A DNA stretch of 64,000 nucleotides from an uncultured Nitrososphaerota archaeon (GTDB lineage Archaea > Thermoproteota > Nitrososphaeria > Nitrososphaerales > CADDZS01), in assembly GCA_963799845.1 (NCBI GenBank), contig CAWCYI010000004.1:1280001-1344000 (forward strand). The letters are read 5' to 3'. The position numbers and the translations under genes are program-made. The notes beneath the pieces were generated by a model that searched no databases, had not been told where the DNA came from, and saw only the letters and a list, made by a program, of their open reading frames with translations. Below are positions 147 to 11,307 of the stretch, in pieces; position 1 is the first letter of the stretch, and each line of letters begins with the position of its first letter.

Positions 147-521
147 TTACGTTGTAGAACTTGGACCTGAAACCTCATAAGAAGTCGGTCCCTTTCCAAT
201 GCTAAATATCAGGACCAGAGCTTCTTCGCGGTTTGGATTTACGTCGCGATGCACGAGTTCAGGGGGAATCAGAAAGAAATCACCCCGAGATAGAATGGCA
301 CGCTCTTGACCATTTTGGCCGAACTCAATGTTCGCTTTCCCGGACATAATGTATCCGTACATGGTACGTTTTCCATGATGATGCCAACCACCGGTCGTTC
401 CTCCACTAATTCGAACCTCTCCGACATGATCAGAGTCTGACTCGAAGATCGGTCGCGAATCGAAACCCTCTTTGGTTTTACCTCGTTCCTGTTCGGGATG
501 TACGACTTGAATCTTATCCAT
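147..521 (-). CDS. Cupin-domain protein
   Basis: Cupin motifs GWHHHG..MYGYIMSG and GDFFLIPPELVHRDVN in a 124-aa ORF. Confidence 0.85.
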   Translation of the reverse strand: MDKIQVVHPEQERGKTKEGFDSRPIFESDSDHVGEVRISGGTTGGWHHHGKRTMYGYIMSGKANIEFGQNGQERAILSRGDFFLIPPELVHRDVNPNREEALVLIFSIGKGPTSYEVSGPSSTT

Positions 522-1575: not shown

Positions 1576-2007
1576 TTAACCGCCTGCATAGACGGGAATC
1601 AAATCGACTTCTGTCTTGTCTTGAAGTAGTGGATTATCCTGTGTGGGGACACCATTCACTACTATTTGCATCACTGGAAGCATCGCAGCAAGTACCACAT
1701 GTTCCTGTTTTACTTGACCCAGAACATCATCAAGATACACGGGAGAAGGTAGCGTAAAATACTCTTCCTTAGTCCGGGTCATTTGAGTAGACATTCCAAA
1801 ATAAACTATCTTTATTGTGATAGATCCAGACTGAACTGCTTGCTTGCTATTATCATTGCTATTGTCTTCATTTTCTTGTGACCCTTCTTGTCCTTGCGAA
1901 AAGCCGAGAAGCGCGGAACTCCCCAGAGCTACTAGACAAATGCCACCCGAAATTAAGATAAGTCTTTTTAGGGCACTTCTTCGACTCGGGCGGGTTTCTG
2001 ATGACAT
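1576..2007 (-). CDS. MoaD/ThiS/SAMP ubiquitin-like protein with N-terminal twin-arginine-like signal or anchor
   Basis: Beta-grasp pattern ITIKIVYFG...IVVNG...EVDLIPVYAGG with C-terminal diglycine; N-terminal SRRSALK plus hydrophobic stretch; ATG at 2007 preferred over TTG at 2070. Confidence 0.8.
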   Translation of the reverse strand: MSSETRPSRRSALKRLILISGGICLVALGSSALLGFSQGQEGSQENEDNSNDNSKQAVQSGSITIKIVYFGMSTQMTRTKEEYFTLPSPVYLDDVLGQVKQEHVVLAAMLPVMQIVVNGVPTQDNPLLQDKTEVDLIPVYAGG

Positions 2008-2082: not shown

Positions 2083-3468
2083 TTAGCCGGATTCCACAAT
2101 CACAGTTCCTTTCATCCAAGGATGGATGCTGCAATGATAGGCGTAAGTTCCCGGCGTCGTAAACGTATAGCTCCAAGTCTGTCCTTGGTTTAGAAATCCT
2201 GAATCAAACGAACCGTCGTCTGCAGTTACAGTGTGAGTTGCATCATCATTGTTTGTCCAGGTGACAGTGTTGTTTACACCGATCACTACTGTTATCGTCG
2301 TAGGTGAGTAGTACGTGGTTGTGGAATTCACTGCCGATCCCGACTGAATACTAACGGGGACTCCTGGAGCGCCAGATGTTGTCGTCAAGCCAGCAGAAGT
2401 GGAACTTGAGTTCTCAACTTTGAACACCCCAACTGCTCCCGCCTGCGCGTAAGCAAAAGCATGATTCACAAAAGGATTCAACCCGCCTGCATCTGGGAAG
2501 TACATATCAACTATGGCACCCCCGGCTGGAGGTATACTTAGAGTCTGTAATCCATGTTCTACGTTGAACGGATTCCCATCGATATAGACAGTATCCATTA
2601 TTCCACCTATGACGTGAAATGCCTCCCACAGATTGGGGCCCTCGTTGAAGACGTAAAGCCGAACCAACTCGTTTGGATTCACGACTAGCGGATTTGATTG
2701 ATACTGGAAGGCTCTCCCGTTAAAAACTACGTAATCGGGCGTCGCGGCTAGCATCTTCGTATAATTGCCGGTGTAACTACCGTCAGTGCTAGGCTGGGCG
2801 TTCAAATAAAATTCGCTTTCTATCAGCACGTAGGTTCCGCCGGGTGCAGGTGGTAAAGCCCAGCTTCCGGTTCCGTTGACGATTATGACTCCATACATCC
2901 CGTTGGCGATATGCTCCAAGACAGGTGGAACACCGCAGTGATACATGAATATCCCTGGATAGGCAGGGGTGAAGTTGAACGAGAGTGACTTGCCCGGCAA
3001 GACGGGCGCATAGACGGCAGCCCAGTTAACCTGAGCCGCGTGGAAATCTATCGAGTGAGCCATCGTGTCGTTGTTGATTAATGTGAATTCAACGTTCTCA
3101 CAGAGTGTTACCCAGATCGTGGGTCCCGGGATGGTTCCGTTGAAGCTCCAACCGTCGTATGTAACATTGTTCGCAATCTCAACTTTCGCTCTTTCGGCGA
3201 TGAGCGTAATCTTTGTGCTTCCGGCTTGAGAGTTGCAGACTGGTGTCGGGTAACCTTCCGACTGGACACCGCCCGCTTGATGTGTCGTTGTTACTGTTGT
3301 AGTAGATGCCACAGGGCTAGAACTTGAAGTGGTTGATTGGTTCTGTGCGGTCTGCATGTTGGAGTAAATTCCTATGACTCCAGCCCCTAGAATAAAGGCG
3401 ATCGTAACCATAGAGATCGCAACAACGTTTGCAACTGCAATCCTTCTCTTACTTTGGATATCGTTCAT
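2083..3468 (-). CDS. nirK: Copper-containing nitrite reductase (NirK-type) with N-terminal membrane anchor and C-terminal cupredoxin domain
   Basis: HSIDFH, YHCGVPPVLEHIANGMYG, FHVIG and FVNHAF motifs (type 1/type 2 Cu ligands plus catalytic Asp/His); extra plastocyanin-like domain HTVT...YHCSIHPWMKG. Confidence 0.8.
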   Translation of the reverse strand: MNDIQSKRRIAVANVVAISMVTIAFILGAGVIGIYSNMQTAQNQSTTSSSSPVASTTTVTTTHQAGGVQSEGYPTPVCNSQAGSTKITLIAERAKVEIANNVTYDGWSFNGTIPGPTIWVTLCENVEFTLINNDTMAHSIDFHAAQVNWAAVYAPVLPGKSLSFNFTPAYPGIFMYHCGVPPVLEHIANGMYGVIIVNGTGSWALPPAPGGTYVLIESEFYLNAQPSTDGSYTGNYTKMLAATPDYVVFNGRAFQYQSNPLVVNPNELVRLYVFNEGPNLWEAFHVIGGIMDTVYIDGNPFNVEHGLQTLSIPPAGGAIVDMYFPDAGGLNPFVNHAFAYAQAGAVGVFKVENSSSTSAGLTTTSGAPGVPVSIQSGSAVNSTTTYYSPTTITVVIGVNNTVTWTNNDDATHTVTADDGSFDSGFLNQGQTWSYTFTTPGTYAYHCSIHPWMKGTVIVESG

Positions 3469-3680: not shown

Positions 3681-4177
3681 ATGTTGACTACACCACCATC
3701 GCTGACAGAAGAGCACGAAGAAATCATGGGTTCGCTAGATGAGTTCTCAAGACTTCGAGACGAGACCGGAAAGTCAGTAAAGGAACTTGTAGATGTATTA
3801 GAGCCGCACTTTGGGAAGGAAGAGAGACTAGCGATGCCCGTGCTCGGAACGCTGTCGGAGCTAGTCTCAGAAGATCAAACTTCTACAAATCTTAGAGCAA
3901 TAGCCGAATCGCAGGCTGCTCTTCGGGAGGAGTACGACAACATGTTTGTGGAGCATGCAGAGCTTAGAACATTCATTCAGAATGCTGGAAGATTCGCGAA
4001 GCAGGAAGATTCGCGAAGCAGGAAAATCATGAAGATGTGGTTGACCTGCTGGATGCACTTTCCCATCATGCCAGAGTCGAGGAAGAAGTCCTATACCCCG
4101 CGGTGATGCTCGCGGGGACCGTCGCAAAATTCCTACTGCATTCTGAAGAAGATAGACAAATTCATGAAGTGACGTAA
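3681..4177 (+). pseudogene. Hemerythrin/HHE-domain protein disrupted by a 17-bp tandem duplication
   Basis: EEHEEI and PHFGKEERLAMP motifs; removing one GGAAGATTCGCGAAGCA copy restores HHARVEEEVLYP and a 159-aa ORF ending at 4177. Confidence 0.8.
3987..4024 (+). repeat. 17-bp tandem duplication (GGAAGATTCGCGAAGCA x2 + GGAA)
   Basis: Read directly: 3987-4003 is identical to 4004-4020. Confidence 0.95.
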
Positions 4178-4218
4178 AATTACTTTTGAGCACATTTTCT
4201 CCCTTCAAAAGATGTATT

Positions 4219-4881
4219 ATGCCCCACTTCCCTAACAGACTTGTGCTTGAAGTCAAGCTCCTAGTTGAGGCGCCCAAGGATTGGATCAAAGAAGTCAATC
4301 GAGGTCATTCCGCATTTGTCAAGATTACTGACATCAGGAGCTCGGGCACGTCTCGAGCCGTACAGAACTTTGTCGAGATTTCTTCCCCAAAGATCGGAGC
4401 TGACGAGCTGATTAAGGCGATCAGCGCCTCAAAGGACATCAAGGATGTGGACTTGGTTCGCCTAGATCCACACCGCATTGTCGGGATGATAACTACTCAG
4501 GACTGTCCAGTCTGCTCGACTCTTTCGGGCTTGAATTGTTCGATGCTTTCTGCCTCAACTAGGGACGATGGAAAGATGGAATGGAAAGTATTGATCAGCG
4601 GAGAAGACACTCTGAAGAAGATAACAGTGAGACTGGAAGCTAATCGGGTGTCTTACAAGATTCTTGGACTCACGCACCTTACAGCAAAGAACGATCTAAC
4701 CGCAAGGCAGGAGTACATAATCAAGATTGCTTTTGAACTCGGATACTTCGAGTTTCCGAAAAAGATAAAGCTTGAGGAACTCTCAACTAGGCTAGGAATT
4801 TCGCCCGGAACACTTTCCGAAATACTGAGAAGAGCTGAAAAGAACATCCTTTCCAAGTACTTCCGAGGCCATCACGAGTAG
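4219..4881 (+). CDS. Bacterio-opsin activator-type (HTH_10) transcriptional regulator
   Basis: C-terminal LTARQEYIIKIAFELGYFEFPKKIKLEELSTRLGISPGTLSEILRRAE; CPVC in N-terminal domain; start uncertain (4186 TTG, 4219 ATG). Confidence 0.88.
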   Translation: MPHFPNRLVLEVKLLVEAPKDWIKEVNRGHSAFVKITDIRSSGTSRAVQNFVEISSPKIGADELIKAISASKDIKDVDLVRLDPHRIVGMITTQDCPVCSTLSGLNCSMLSASTRDDGKMEWKVLISGEDTLKKITVRLEANRVSYKILGLTHLTAKNDLTARQEYIIKIAFELGYFEFPKKIKLEELSTRLGISPGTLSEILRRAEKNILSKYFRGHHE

Positions 4882-7369: not shown

Positions 7370-8494
7370 ATGATGAGAAATAAGAGTAAGAAGATTATTC
7401 GAAGAAGTATGAGTAGCAATTGCGTAATCGCAGGAATTGACCTGGGCGATAGTAGCAGCCTTGCAACCGTTCTCTCTCCAGTCGGAGAGATCGCAGACAG
7501 GTTCTCCTTCCAGATGGATGAAGCGGGGTACGCCCTGTTCTCAGACAGAATTCCAAGGGATGCGAGGTTAGCTTTTGAAGCTACCAGCTCGGCATATCCG
7601 TTCTCAAGAATGCTCAAGGAACTAGGATACCACGACATAACTGTAGCTCATCCTACTGAACTTGCCTGGATCGTCAGATCAAAGAAAAAGAATGATAGAG
7701 CTGATAGCTTAAAGATAGCCAAGCTCCATCTAGCGGGTCTGTTGCCCGAATCTCATCTTTTGGCTCAAGAGGAGCAGATAGAAAGAGACCTCTTGATTCA
7801 GAGGGTAAAGCTCGGATCAGAGATAGGTAAAATCAAGAGCAGAATCATAAGCTATCTCAAGAGGGAAGGAGTGTTCGAATCTCTCCCGAAGAGCAAAGAT
7901 AACTTCTCTGCTAGAAGGAGGGTTGCAATCGCCTCAATGAAATTCAACGATGACAGAGACCTCGTGCTGAAAACCATGGTTGAGAGACTCGAATTCATGG
8001 AGAAGCAGTGCGAGCCGTTGGAGCAGAGGATAATGAAGAACGCGAAGGACAACAAATACGTCAGGATGATAATGTCTATTCCTGGCATAGATTACTACCT
8101 CGCTTCGCTATATTCTTCGTACATCGGAGATCCACACCGCTTTCCGTCTTTTGATCACGTCGCAAGCTTCCTCGGGATAATTCCAGAGAGCAAGGATAGT
8201 GCAAACGTCAGGAGGAGAGGAAGAATGTCCAAGGACGGACCTTCCATTGCGAGATGGGCTCTGGGCATAATGACCGACACGGTGCTGCTCTACAATCCGA
8301 ATATCAAGGTATACTACAACGGCGTCAAGCAGAGGACGGGTCGCGGGAGCTACGCCCATGTGCTAGTGATGAAGAAGTTAGCTCGCATGATCCATCACAT
8401 GATGATTACGGAGGAGAACTACAAGTGGGAGAACGAGGCGCTAACAGAAGCAAAGATCTCAAGACTCGATGCCGCTGGAGGTGAATCAGCCTAG
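7370..8494 (+). CDS. IS110-family transposase/recombinase
   Basis: IAGIDLG, LAFEAT, KKKNDRADS (RuvC-like DEDD); IPGID, FLGIIPESKDSA, MSKDGPSIARWAL (C-terminal Tnp20 domain with Ser). Confidence 0.95.
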   Translation: MMRNKSKKIIRRSMSSNCVIAGIDLGDSSSLATVLSPVGEIADRFSFQMDEAGYALFSDRIPRDARLAFEATSSAYPFSRMLKELGYHDITVAHPTELAWIVRSKKKNDRADSLKIAKLHLAGLLPESHLLAQEEQIERDLLIQRVKLGSEIGKIKSRIISYLKREGVFESLPKSKDNFSARRRVAIASMKFNDDRDLVLKTMVERLEFMEKQCEPLEQRIMKNAKDNKYVRMIMSIPGIDYYLASLYSSYIGDPHRFPSFDHVASFLGIIPESKDSANVRRRGRMSKDGPSIARWALGIMTDTVLLYNPNIKVYYNGVKQRTGRGSYAHVLVMKKLARMIHHMMITEENYKWENEALTEAKISRLDAAGGESA

Positions 8495-10263: not shown

Positions 10264-11307
10264 CTAATGAGTATAGGAAGATTCTGGTGGCGTCTTCAAT
10301 GGAAACTCGATCCCGTACCTCTCCTCTATTTTCTTTAACATGCTGAGTACTCTACCCTCCTTAGTGATTCCCTCGACCTGATGAATCAGTCTCAGAGATT
10401 CAAGAGCCCGTCTGCAAATTCTCGAGTTGTAGGGCATGGACTTTATCGATAGATACAGGGAATTCCTTTCTTCACTGGAGACTTTCTTTCCATAATATCT
10501 TTCAATCGCATCATCGAGTTGCCTGAAAGTATCAAGGAGGCACCTCTCTTCGCTCGTGTACCCGTAAAAGCAGTTCCTGCAGTTTGCCGAGAGAAGCTCC
10601 CTCATCGGTCCCTTTTCGTTGACACGAACGTGCCTCATCGGATAGATGTATCCTTGATCTTTGAGTCGCTCCACAATCTTGTACGCAGCACCGATCGTCA
10701 ATCCCAGACTGGACAGGTTCTCGTAAATATCCGCAATCGAACTGCCAGTTCCTGAACATAGGCTGTTCATGATCACTTCCTCGGGCCAGGAAGGGAGCTC
10801 AGAAAGAAATTTCTCGAGTATAAGTTCAACCTTCTTCCTGTCCACTTCGTACTCTGAAAAGCCGTTGATCCTGGATTCGAAAACCGTCGCATCCAGAAGC
10901 TCTTCGAAGACCTTTGCGCAATGCTTTGAATCAAGACCGGTTATTTCAGAGACAGATTCTAGAGAAACTCCACGGTTCCAACCCTTGGTCTGTAAAATGT
11001 AGACAACGGCCCAGAGGACCGCAAGATCCTTGTCCTTCCAGCTTCTCCTTAAAAACCACTCAAATTGCCTGAATGCTCTAATCGAGTCGCTCTTGGTGAC
11101 AACATAATAAGTGTGGCCCTGCTTCCTCTTTTTCAAACCTAGCGAAGAACATAGCTCATCAAGAACGAGTTCTACTTGCGTTTTCATCGGGAAGATCAAG
11201 ACCTTCCCGCCAACGTTTTCGAGTACATAGGGTGGTAATCGGCCGTATAACTCCTCGCTCCAATCCAATGGTGCAAATGAGCCCAGCAGGCTCAAGGCCG
11301 CTGGCAA
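10264..11307 (-). CDS. Putative multi-wHTH transcriptional regulator with Cys cluster
   Basis: HTH-like segments VSLESVSEITGLDSKHCAKVFEEL and SIADIYENL...AYKIVERLKDQGYI; CRNCFYGYTSEERC; divergent from the oxidoreductase operon. Confidence 0.6.
   Translation of the reverse strand: MPAALSLLGSFAPLDWSEELYGRLPPYVLENVGGKVLIFPMKTQVELVLDELCSSLGLKKRKQGHTYYVVTKSDSIRAFRQFEWFLRRSWKDKDLAVLWAVVYILQTKGWNRGVSLESVSEITGLDSKHCAKVFEELLDATVFESRINGFSEYEVDRKKVELILEKFLSELPSWPEEVIMNSLCSGTGSSIADIYENLSSLGLTIGAAYKIVERLKDQGYIYPMRHVRVNEKGPMRELLSANCRNCFYGYTSEERCLLDTFRQLDDAIERYYGKKVSSEERNSLYLSIKSMPYNSRICRRALESLRLIHQVEGITKEGRVLSMLKKIEERYGIEFPLKTPPESSYTH

Follow-up and report, generated by a model that had tools for sequence, protein, structure and literature searches.

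MoaD, ThiS, SAMP and Urm1 are treated as strictly cytoplasmic proteins, since what they do chemically depends on ATP and on an E1 enzyme. The locus described here raises the question of what a protein of this kind could do on the other side of the membrane. It lies in a stretch of 64,000 nucleotides (contig CAWCYI010000004.1, positions 1,280,001 to 1,344,000; hereafter the window) from the genome of an uncultured Nitrososphaerota archaeon, where a small gene directly downstream of a gene for a NirK-type copper nitrite reductase encodes a ubiquitin-like (Ubl) protein, P0001, which joins a beta-grasp domain with an intact terminal Gly-Gly (GG) to an N-terminal segment of the twin-arginine translocation (Tat) type. 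A family joining this GG-intact fold to a Tat signal breaks the expectation of a cytoplasmic location. We propose, with a probability of roughly 0.4, that P0001 is a Tat-exported and probably tethered accessory factor for copper enzymes, which would handle Cu(I) through a cluster of Met and His residues.

Architecture and conservation of P0001

P0001 is encoded by a minus-strand open reading frame (ORF) of 143 codons plus stop with an ATG start, and its sequence runs from MSSETRPSRRSALKR through LILISGGICLVALGSSALLGF and SQGQEGSQENEDNSNDNSKQAVQSG into an 82-residue domain with the C-terminus IPVYAGG. The initial annotation had recognized SRRSALK, a hydrophobic helix, a Q/E/N/S linker and a beta-grasp domain with terminal GG, and each of these elements was recovered in P0001 from the sequence, Pfam and AlphaFold2 (Table 1). 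The Tat consensus is S/T-R-R-x-F-L-K, and a TATFIND-type rule asks for an uncharged h-region of at least 13 residues after the twin-arginine motif. SRRSALK at residues 8-14 conforms to the former and the uncharged run L16-Q40, 25 residues long, to the latter, the Kyte-Doolittle maximum of the h-region being 2.29 (15-residue window). Because the next Met after the ATG at 2007 is M72, within the first loop of the beta-grasp domain, and because the close homologues align from the same ATG, a start codon downstream of the hydrophobic helix is excluded on sequence grounds, and the upstream start assumed in the initial annotation stands. A reading of SGGIC as a lipobox was rejected, since the Cys is absent in P0010 and P0011 and Ile or Leu occupies position -1.

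The N-terminal extension is retained among homologues. A HMMER scan of 1.84 billion representative proteins returned 109 at E<=1e-3, 52 of them also at E<=1e-10, and all 118 homologues (P0002-P0119) were classified without preselection, the twin-arginine class being defined by RR followed by a 13-residue window with a hydropathy of at least 1.5. RR and a hydrophobic stretch precede the domain in 64/118 proteins, 62 of which end in GG; a further 23, from short gene calls or contig ends, lack RR and start inside the hydrophobic stretch (20 with GG), 8 possess an extension without a clear hydrophobic stretch (7 with GG) and 22 have no extension (18 with GG). The one other entry, P0107 (490 aa), is a spurious match and was dropped, being a repeat protein that aligns with the low-complexity linker only. 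Among the 22 extension-less homologues, M109 and M113 occur in 16 and M72 in 14, and since several of them (e.g., P0070, P0100, P0104 and P0118) begin at or after the conserved M72, these are probably fragments; P0094, P0098, P0110 and P0116 are, judging by their sequences, ordinary cytoplasmic MoaDs.

Both ends of the protein singled out by the initial annotation, RR and GG, proved to be conserved. The family alignment (A2) was picked for RR and GG, so that its invariant RR and GG columns are no evidence, and the unbiased figures are the counts over the 118 homologues. The motif logo over 66 homologues reads [ST]RRx[ALVF]L[RK], which is the Tat consensus, and GG is present at 110/111 filled alignment columns in a family diverged to ~30% identity. 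P0001 and its 10 close homologues align from a common start, and in this alignment L18, G22 and G142/G143 do not vary at all and R9/R10 hardly do. The linker S37-G61 varies among homologues in both length and sequence. When codon differences between 7 genes were compared, residues 1-36 had a synonymous share of 0.32 (linker, 0.14; domain, 0.51), which shows purifying selection on the codons of this N-terminal part.

The C-terminal domain was predicted to adopt the beta-grasp fold named in the initial annotation, closest to MoaD and SAMP1. Pfam ThiS (PF02597) matches residues 68-143 with 23.8 bits, above the gathering cut-off of 22.5. In the AlphaFold2 model, built from a 63-row family alignment, the 10-residue blocks across residues 61-140 have an average pLDDT of 93-98 and the order of strands and helices is that of a five-stranded beta-grasp; the N-terminus and linker have a pLDDT of 53-63, with a low-confidence helix at residues 9-27. 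The best Foldseek matches in the PDB are mycobacterial and human MoaD (6jbz_B, E 7.5e-7, TMt 0.87; 5mpo_A), the MoaD-like protein of Pyrococcus (1vjk) and SAMP1 of Haloferax (3po0), with E between 7.5e-7 and 1e-4 and TMt between 0.77 and 0.87, and the family profile matches 1vjk_A with E 3.9e-12. A divergent member (locus L003) gave no Pfam match at E<=0.01. P0001 is thus a member of the MoaD/ThiS superfamily by its fold, its GG terminus and the Pfam cut-off. By the sequence criteria it is not a molybdopterin-synthase MoaD, because its score with the NCBIfam moaD equivalog TIGR01682 (24 bits) is far below the cut-off of 66.15 and no MoaE or molybdenum cofactor (Moco) synthesis gene was found within its locus among the window ORFs searched with Pfam. 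Pfam and NCBIfam returned ThiS and moaD only for P0001, with no homology to the copper-chaperone families CusF, CopC and PCuAC. A separate MoaD-like gene is located elsewhere in the window's genome (C6:617815), where it adjoins ORFs named by eye as MoaC/MoaB-like.

The domain also carries residues of its own. Over the 118 aligned sequences, Y69 is found in 110/113, M72 in 102/117, E82 in 115/118, P89 in 110/118, H103 in 113/118, M109 in 104/117 and M113 in 107/118; within the 64 Tat-type proteins, M72 and H103 are each present in 60, M109 in 62 and M113 in 63, and many family members extend the Met motif to MMxxMM. At the three Met positions the cytoplasmic relatives have F/Q/I, V/I/L and L/A/V. 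The Met content of the domain is 5.2%, vs 2.4% in a set of 21 MoaD-type domains of cytoplasmic proteins taken from the phylum and class samples described below, and Cys amounts to 0.06 per domain. Given the strand order in the model and the known beta-grasp topology, Y69, M72, E82, H103, M109 and M113 would all be placed at the same end as the exit of the GG tail. In a quick maximum-likelihood tree (82 columns, SH-aLRT support only), all 63 Tat-type rows and one doubtful row were split from 28 cytoplasmic rows by a branch with an SH-aLRT of 94, the nearest cytoplasmic relatives being sulfur-carrier MoaDs of the same phylum encoded beside aldehyde ferredoxin oxidoreductase (AOR), as in L004, downstream of the AOR gene.

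The machinery needed for export is encoded in the window's genome (G000; 4.6 Mb, 9 contigs, 86.7% complete), where TatC is present (143.6 bits) together with a TatA-like ORF at C6:1514104-1514412, named by eye. The Rieske protein is the textbook Tat signal-anchored substrate. That of the genome has the same layout as P0001, with SRRNFLK, an uncharged h-region, a long Ser/Thr-rich stalk and a folded domain. P0001 carries a charge of about +4 ahead of the helix and of about -4 behind it, from which, by the positive-inside rule, an N-in/C-out topology is predicted, and the long stalk argues for membrane tethering. The neighbouring NirK, too, is equipped with a hydrophobic anchor at its N-terminus and with a Ser/Thr stalk. 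Since the RR at its N-terminus is not conserved (SKRR in the window, RKTRK in L047, none in L070), NirK would probably be exported unfolded by Sec-type insertion, and the idea of NirK as a Tat hitch-hiker or conjugation target was rejected as unlikely, NirK having its own anchor and no conserved RR.

Two further observations concern the Tat and E1 genes. In the stretch G000:C6:1514104-1516395, the TatA-like gene is divergent from a gene for a 106-aa protein with the canonical Tat signal SRRTFLK and an Ala/Ser-rich linker, after which comes a 486-aa ORF, and the 106-aa protein is another small Tat passenger without assigned function. The genome has one ThiF-family E1, fused to its own Ubl domain (ThiS-ThiF), which is the only ThiF-family match found there; this fusion (C4:773645-775222) stands in a cluster (G000:C4:772402-775222) with a CysM-like pyridoxal phosphate enzyme and a JAMM/MPN+ protease, both named by eye.

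The nirK neighbourhood and the distribution of the family

The linkage to nirK noted in the initial annotation, on the same strand and just before the P0001 gene, is real (gap of 75 nt) and is kept beyond the window. Besides the window, 7 related loci (L040, L041, L042, L046, L047, L048 and L070) encode a NirK with a fused cupredoxin directly upstream in the same orientation; of these, L040 and L041 are short contigs showing the cupredoxin end alone and L047 and L048 are near-identical contigs; in L044, L045 and L049 the upstream side is outside the visible contig. The most distant case, L070, belongs to a different family (f79) of the same class with a high GC content, and there a 444-aa NirK-cupredoxin ends 8 nt before the Tat-type gene (ARRKAVKEILL...), which is frameshifted after about residue 105, and a HTH_10 regulator adjoins. 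P0001 and nirK share their orientation and are probably co-transcribed. The NirK neighbour scores 185 bits with TIGR02376, under the cut-off of 296, and no variation is seen among 47 homologues in its motifs HSIDFH and YHCG or in H186, M191, H285 and H336, which we take to supply the ligands of both coppers (type 1 and type 2) as well as the catalytic Asp and His. Taken together, the claim of an exported or membrane-tethered Ubl protein tied to a surface copper redox enzyme gains support at the level of sequence, from the Tat signal, the nirK synteny and the presence of TatA, TatC and E1 genes.

Table 1. Position of the P0001 gene, of its parts and of its neighbours in the window
Feature	Position in the window	Strand	Basis or remarks
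Tat-signal MoaD-like gene P0001, whole	1576..2007	-	ORF translation, Pfam, homologue searches
Twin-arginine motif S8-R9-R10-S11-A12-L13-K14	1966..1986 (RR codons 1978-1983)	-	Sequence and homologue alignment
Hydrophobic uncharged stretch L16-F36, 21 residues	1900..1962	-	Read as Tat h-region or signal anchor
Low-complexity Q/E/N/S/D linker S37-G61	1825..1899	-	Alignments, pLDDT 53-58, codon comparison
MoaD/ThiS-type beta-grasp domain S62-G143, with Y69, M72, E82, H103, M109, M113	1579..1824	-	Pfam, AlphaFold2, Foldseek, alignments
C-terminal Gly-Gly codons	1579..1584	-	Stop codon 1576-1578 comes immediately after
NirK-type copper nitrite reductase (two-domain copper oxidase) with fused C-terminal cupredoxin	2083..3468	-	Directly upstream of P0001
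Hemerythrin-domain protein	3681..4106	+	Divergent from nirK; hemerythrin also beside nirK in L042, L047, L048, L049
HTH_10 (Bat-type) transcription regulator	4186..4881	+	Pfam; also beside the pair in L048 and L070
Cupin-domain protein	147..521	-	Downstream of P0001; cupin also in L042, L048, L049

The HTH_10 homologue in L048 has 69% identity with that of the window (tblastn). Short plus-strand ORFs at 1244-1629 converge on the 3' end of the Tat-MoaD gene and overlap it; by eye they resemble fragments of an acetyltransferase-like gene, and Pfam gives no match. In L048 (5514-6818, +) and L040 (835-2250, +), a multi-pass membrane protein of 434-471 aa (starting with RRLTLLFI...) is encoded just downstream of the nirK/Tat-MoaD pair, for which neither a Pfam match nor, in the window's genome, a tblastn homologue was found. 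The extended nirK cluster of L048 also contains (7657-8205, +) a 182-aa protein with the molybdopterin-binding oxidoreductase domain PF00174 and no visible signal, of which the window's genome has distant homologues only, located elsewhere.

Two further data sets cover the pair. A complex prediction between NirK residues 74-461 and the Ubl domain (58-143) gave scores of 0.00 and 0.01 vs a mark of 0.32, in a 1:1 run with an enzyme that is a trimer, and these scores speak neither for nor against a complex. Two peat metatranscriptome runs contained contigs identical to nirK at 2493-2653 and 2967-3230 and none across 1576-2007; these are contigs only, from which neither expression of nirK nor silence of the P0001 gene can be concluded.

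Other lineages of the family have different neighbours. The genes of the paralogue group P0006-P0009 follow a COX2-like cupredoxin in L043 and precede a ZIP-type metal transporter in L044. A degenerate, truncated second Tat-MoaD copy (N-terminus and first strand) is found in L043 (389-640, -), on the opposite strand and upstream of the COX2-like cupredoxin. The window's genome keeps a decayed 50-codon remnant of this second Tat-MoaD paralogue with an internal TAA (G000:C4:323324-323473; L053 ~10325-10474), which adjoins ZIP-type transporter and CBS-domain genes, as does the intact paralogue in the metagenome locus L044. In one lineage, known from metagenome and MAG proteins, the Tat-MoaD domain continues into a universal stress protein (Usp) domain: P0250 (256 aa) has ThiS at 37-113 and Usp at 119-256 according to Pfam, with the junction GG-SSQFEF- after the GG; P0005 (206 aa), of the same lineage, has GG and then Usp and seems frameshifted past the junction. 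Going by these sequences, the Usp fusion implies either a proteolytic exposure of the GG or a blocked tail.

The survey of the window's family covered 13 genomes, of which G000, G006 and G007 have Tat-type genes and G011 has a copy containing two stops. In samples of 401 genomes each, the Tat-type gene occurs in G000 and G516 for the class and in G000 alone for the phylum, the other matches being domain-only, cytoplasmic ones, and an apparent full-length match in G428 proved to be an ordinary MoaD. A search for related loci in genome contigs with the close-homologue alignment found no relative. The ESM Atlas holds a 148-aa ThiS cluster with 71 archaeal members. The source names of three members are Nitrososphaerota archaeon, Candidatus Bathyarchaeia archaeon and Terriglobales bacterium; each of the three comes from a metagenome-assembled genome and is labelled 'MoaD/ThiS family protein'. 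In public records the only other label given to members is 'molybdopterin converting factor small subunit'. The NirK of the window is absent from the 12 other genomes of its family and an IS110-family transposase is found at 7370-8494 (+), about 4 kb from the cassette, so that the nirK/Tat-MoaD cassette may be mobile or horizontally acquired. A search for amoA gave no match, and its controls likewise gave none.

Candidate functions of a putatively exported MoaD-like protein

In the mechanism that we propose, P0001 would fold in the cytoplasm and be moved in its folded state across the membrane by the Tat system (TatA and TatC). On the outer face it would most likely be held by the uncleaved signal and a flexible Ser/Thr/Gln-rich stalk, like the genome's Rieske protein and NirK, and its role there would be to assist copper enzymes of the cupredoxin type, NirK in the first place, as an accessory or maturation factor. 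M72, H103, M109 and M113 (often as MMxxMM), with Y69 and E82, could form a Cu(I) site or a docking surface from which copper would be passed to NirK or a cupredoxin, and the GG tail could thread into the partner or complete the Cu(I) site. Outside the cytoplasm, Cu(I) sites are as a rule Met-rich and Cys-free, as in CusF, CopC and PCuAC. The copper reading is favored because of the Met/His cluster, because the neighbours are copper proteins and a metal transporter, and because neither PCuAC nor Sco chaperones were found in the window's genome at its 86.7% completeness. The Met and His residues of the family and its copper-protein neighbours point at least as strongly to copper handling or partner docking as to a chemistry of the GG.

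Several points weigh against this proposal. The main weakness is the strict GG, which is not obviously needed by a copper chaperone and fits an activation by E1 better. The clustering of Met, His, Tyr and Glu around the tail is drawn from the strand topology of the model alone, and the Met positions, which are hydrophobic in the cytoplasmic relatives, could be mere core or interface residues. The small residues after the conserved LG could form a signal cleavage site, in which case the protein would not be held by its signal. A divergent third subgroup (G006 and G007; TRRKALQKLL...LVGG) has no copper gene nearby. Finally, the Tat-MoaD protein is not generally needed by NirK, because NirK homologues (2923 proteins at E<=1e-20) are far commoner than Tat-MoaD (~100 clusters) and a NirK with 60% identity is encoded in G054 without a neighbouring Tat-MoaD gene.

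The alternative next in probability, close to what the initial annotation had advanced, places the activation of the GG before the export: an E1 would act on it in the cytoplasm (adenylation, then thiocarboxylation or conjugation), Tat would export the product, and sulfur, metal or another cargo would reach NirK or other surface enzymes. We consider it unlikely. It would account for a GG kept at 110/111 across so diverged a family, and in the quick tree the nearest relatives, such as the protein of L004, are precisely sulfur-carrier MoaDs beside AOR; a strict use of Tat would fit the need for a cytoplasmic, ATP-dependent step, and the genome does have a Ubl-E1 fusion with a JAMM protease alongside. 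The Usp domain fused after the GG in P0250 and P0005 goes in the same direction, as elsewhere such Ubl fusions imply proteolytic GG exposure, which passages of PMC11237513 state to be needed for MoaD-MoaE and MoaD-MoeB fusions. In none of the loci seen, however, is the Tat-MoaD gene accompanied by a gene for an E1, JAMM, rhodanese or MoaE. An extracytoplasmic sulfur acceptor is not evident either, because NirK contains no sulfide-bearing centre; moreover a NirK probably exported unfolded by Sec would be neither a cytoplasmic conjugation target nor a hitch-hiker, and the Met and His residues of the family would be left unexplained.

The two mechanisms could also be combined. The MoaD-like protein would be processed at its GG and activated there by the lone E1 in the cytoplasm, by adenylation or thiocarboxylation, and exported folded by Tat, and its thiocarboxylate tail, together with the Met and His residues, would hold Cu(I) or give sulfur to NirK or cupredoxins. 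This is likewise unlikely in our estimation.

Less probable still is a metal-free role, in which P0001 would be a surface-tethered adaptor, stabiliser or regulator of NirK and cupredoxins, with the Met patch and the GG tail serving to dock and no copper or sulfur chemistry taking place. The tail of MoaD inserts into MoaE. The model topology and known structures place the conserved residues of P0001 where MoaD and ubiquitin would touch their partners, the Met positions are hydrophobic in the cytoplasmic relatives, and the synteny with NirK and HTH_10 is conserved, all of which would suit a docking protein; nevertheless, three Met and one His near-invariant over ~30% identity would be unusual for a pure hydrophobic patch, and these residues are also retained in the subgroups that have no NirK beside them.

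A domain that remains cytoplasmic, working at the membrane as an ordinary sulfur carrier of the MoaD type with the N-terminal segment as a mere anchor or non-functional relic, is very improbable. Although the domain is well related to MoaD and has the GG, and the Usp fusion partner of one lineage is normally cytoplasmic, the motif is near the Tat consensus and conserved, the charge pattern predicts N-in/C-out, the scarcity of Cys and the enrichment of Met are what an extracellular location would lead one to expect, the layout is that of the genome's Rieske protein, no Moco-synthesis genes are nearby and TIGR01682 scores 24 vs 66.15.

Relation to known systems and biological meaning

The P0001 family shares with the MoaD/ThiS/SAMP proteins (PF02597) the beta-grasp fold, the C-terminal xxGG and a detectable sequence homology, and differs from them by the addition of a twin-arginine signal, a hydrophobic stretch, a long linker and the Y-M-E-H-M-M residues, and by its linkage to NirK and cupredoxin genes instead of MoaE, Moco or E1 genes. 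With the Tat signal-anchored Rieske proteins it has in common the RR consensus, the h-region, the Ser/Thr-rich stalk and a folded domain. In contrast to the Rieske Fe-S domain, the passenger of P0001 is a cofactor-less Ubl domain of 80 residues, so that the usual reason for using Tat, i.e., the insertion of a cofactor, is not evident.

Among the Cu(I) chaperones of the periplasm, Met/His sites occur in CusF, CopC and PCuAC and in AccA, which serves the NirK-type AniA; nirV is a nirK-linked accessory gene. The P0001 family resembles these chaperones as a small, predicted-exported and Met-rich protein beside a copper enzyme, with a conserved His and almost no Cys. There is neither sequence nor fold kinship with them, and the likeness is functional and hypothetical, not one of membership.

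Beta-grasp domains acting outside the cell or at the membrane have been described in SLBB, staphylokinase/superantigen, BofC and YukD of ESX/Type VII in passages of PMC1949818 and PMC1779556, and P0001 is likewise predicted to lie outside or at the membrane. Those families are without the ThiS/MoaD signature or GG, and none is described with a Tat signal in the passages concerned. Within the searchable text of three surveys of archaeal Ubl proteins and of the diversity of beta-grasp domains (PMC2948915, PMC1949818 and PMC1779556), the terms 'signal peptide' and 'twin-arginine' are absent, and the passages on secreted, periplasmic, membrane or transmembrane proteins treat other beta-grasp families. 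A full-text search of openly accessible papers, supplements aside, came upon no account of a Tat or other signal peptide on a protein of the MoaD/ThiS or Ubl kind. There is a real chance that the family represents the first extracytoplasmic system of the Ubl or sulfur-carrier type.

The Tat-MoaD gene is small and should be easily expressed, with RR, GG and the Met and His residues as clear mutant targets. If the combined mechanism were true, Tat would be a route by which an ATP-dependent modification is taken across the membrane, and the first Ubl or sulfur-carrier system outside the cytoplasm would be at hand. The family raises the questions of (i) how archaeal surface copper enzymes such as NirK are supplied with metal, (ii) whether Tat could transport a pre-activated Ubl protein, and (iii) which further roles GG-tailed beta-grasp proteins may have. 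The NirK enzymes of Nitrososphaeria from soil and peat have a bearing on the release of NO and N2O, and the family also flags a candidate accessory gene for them.

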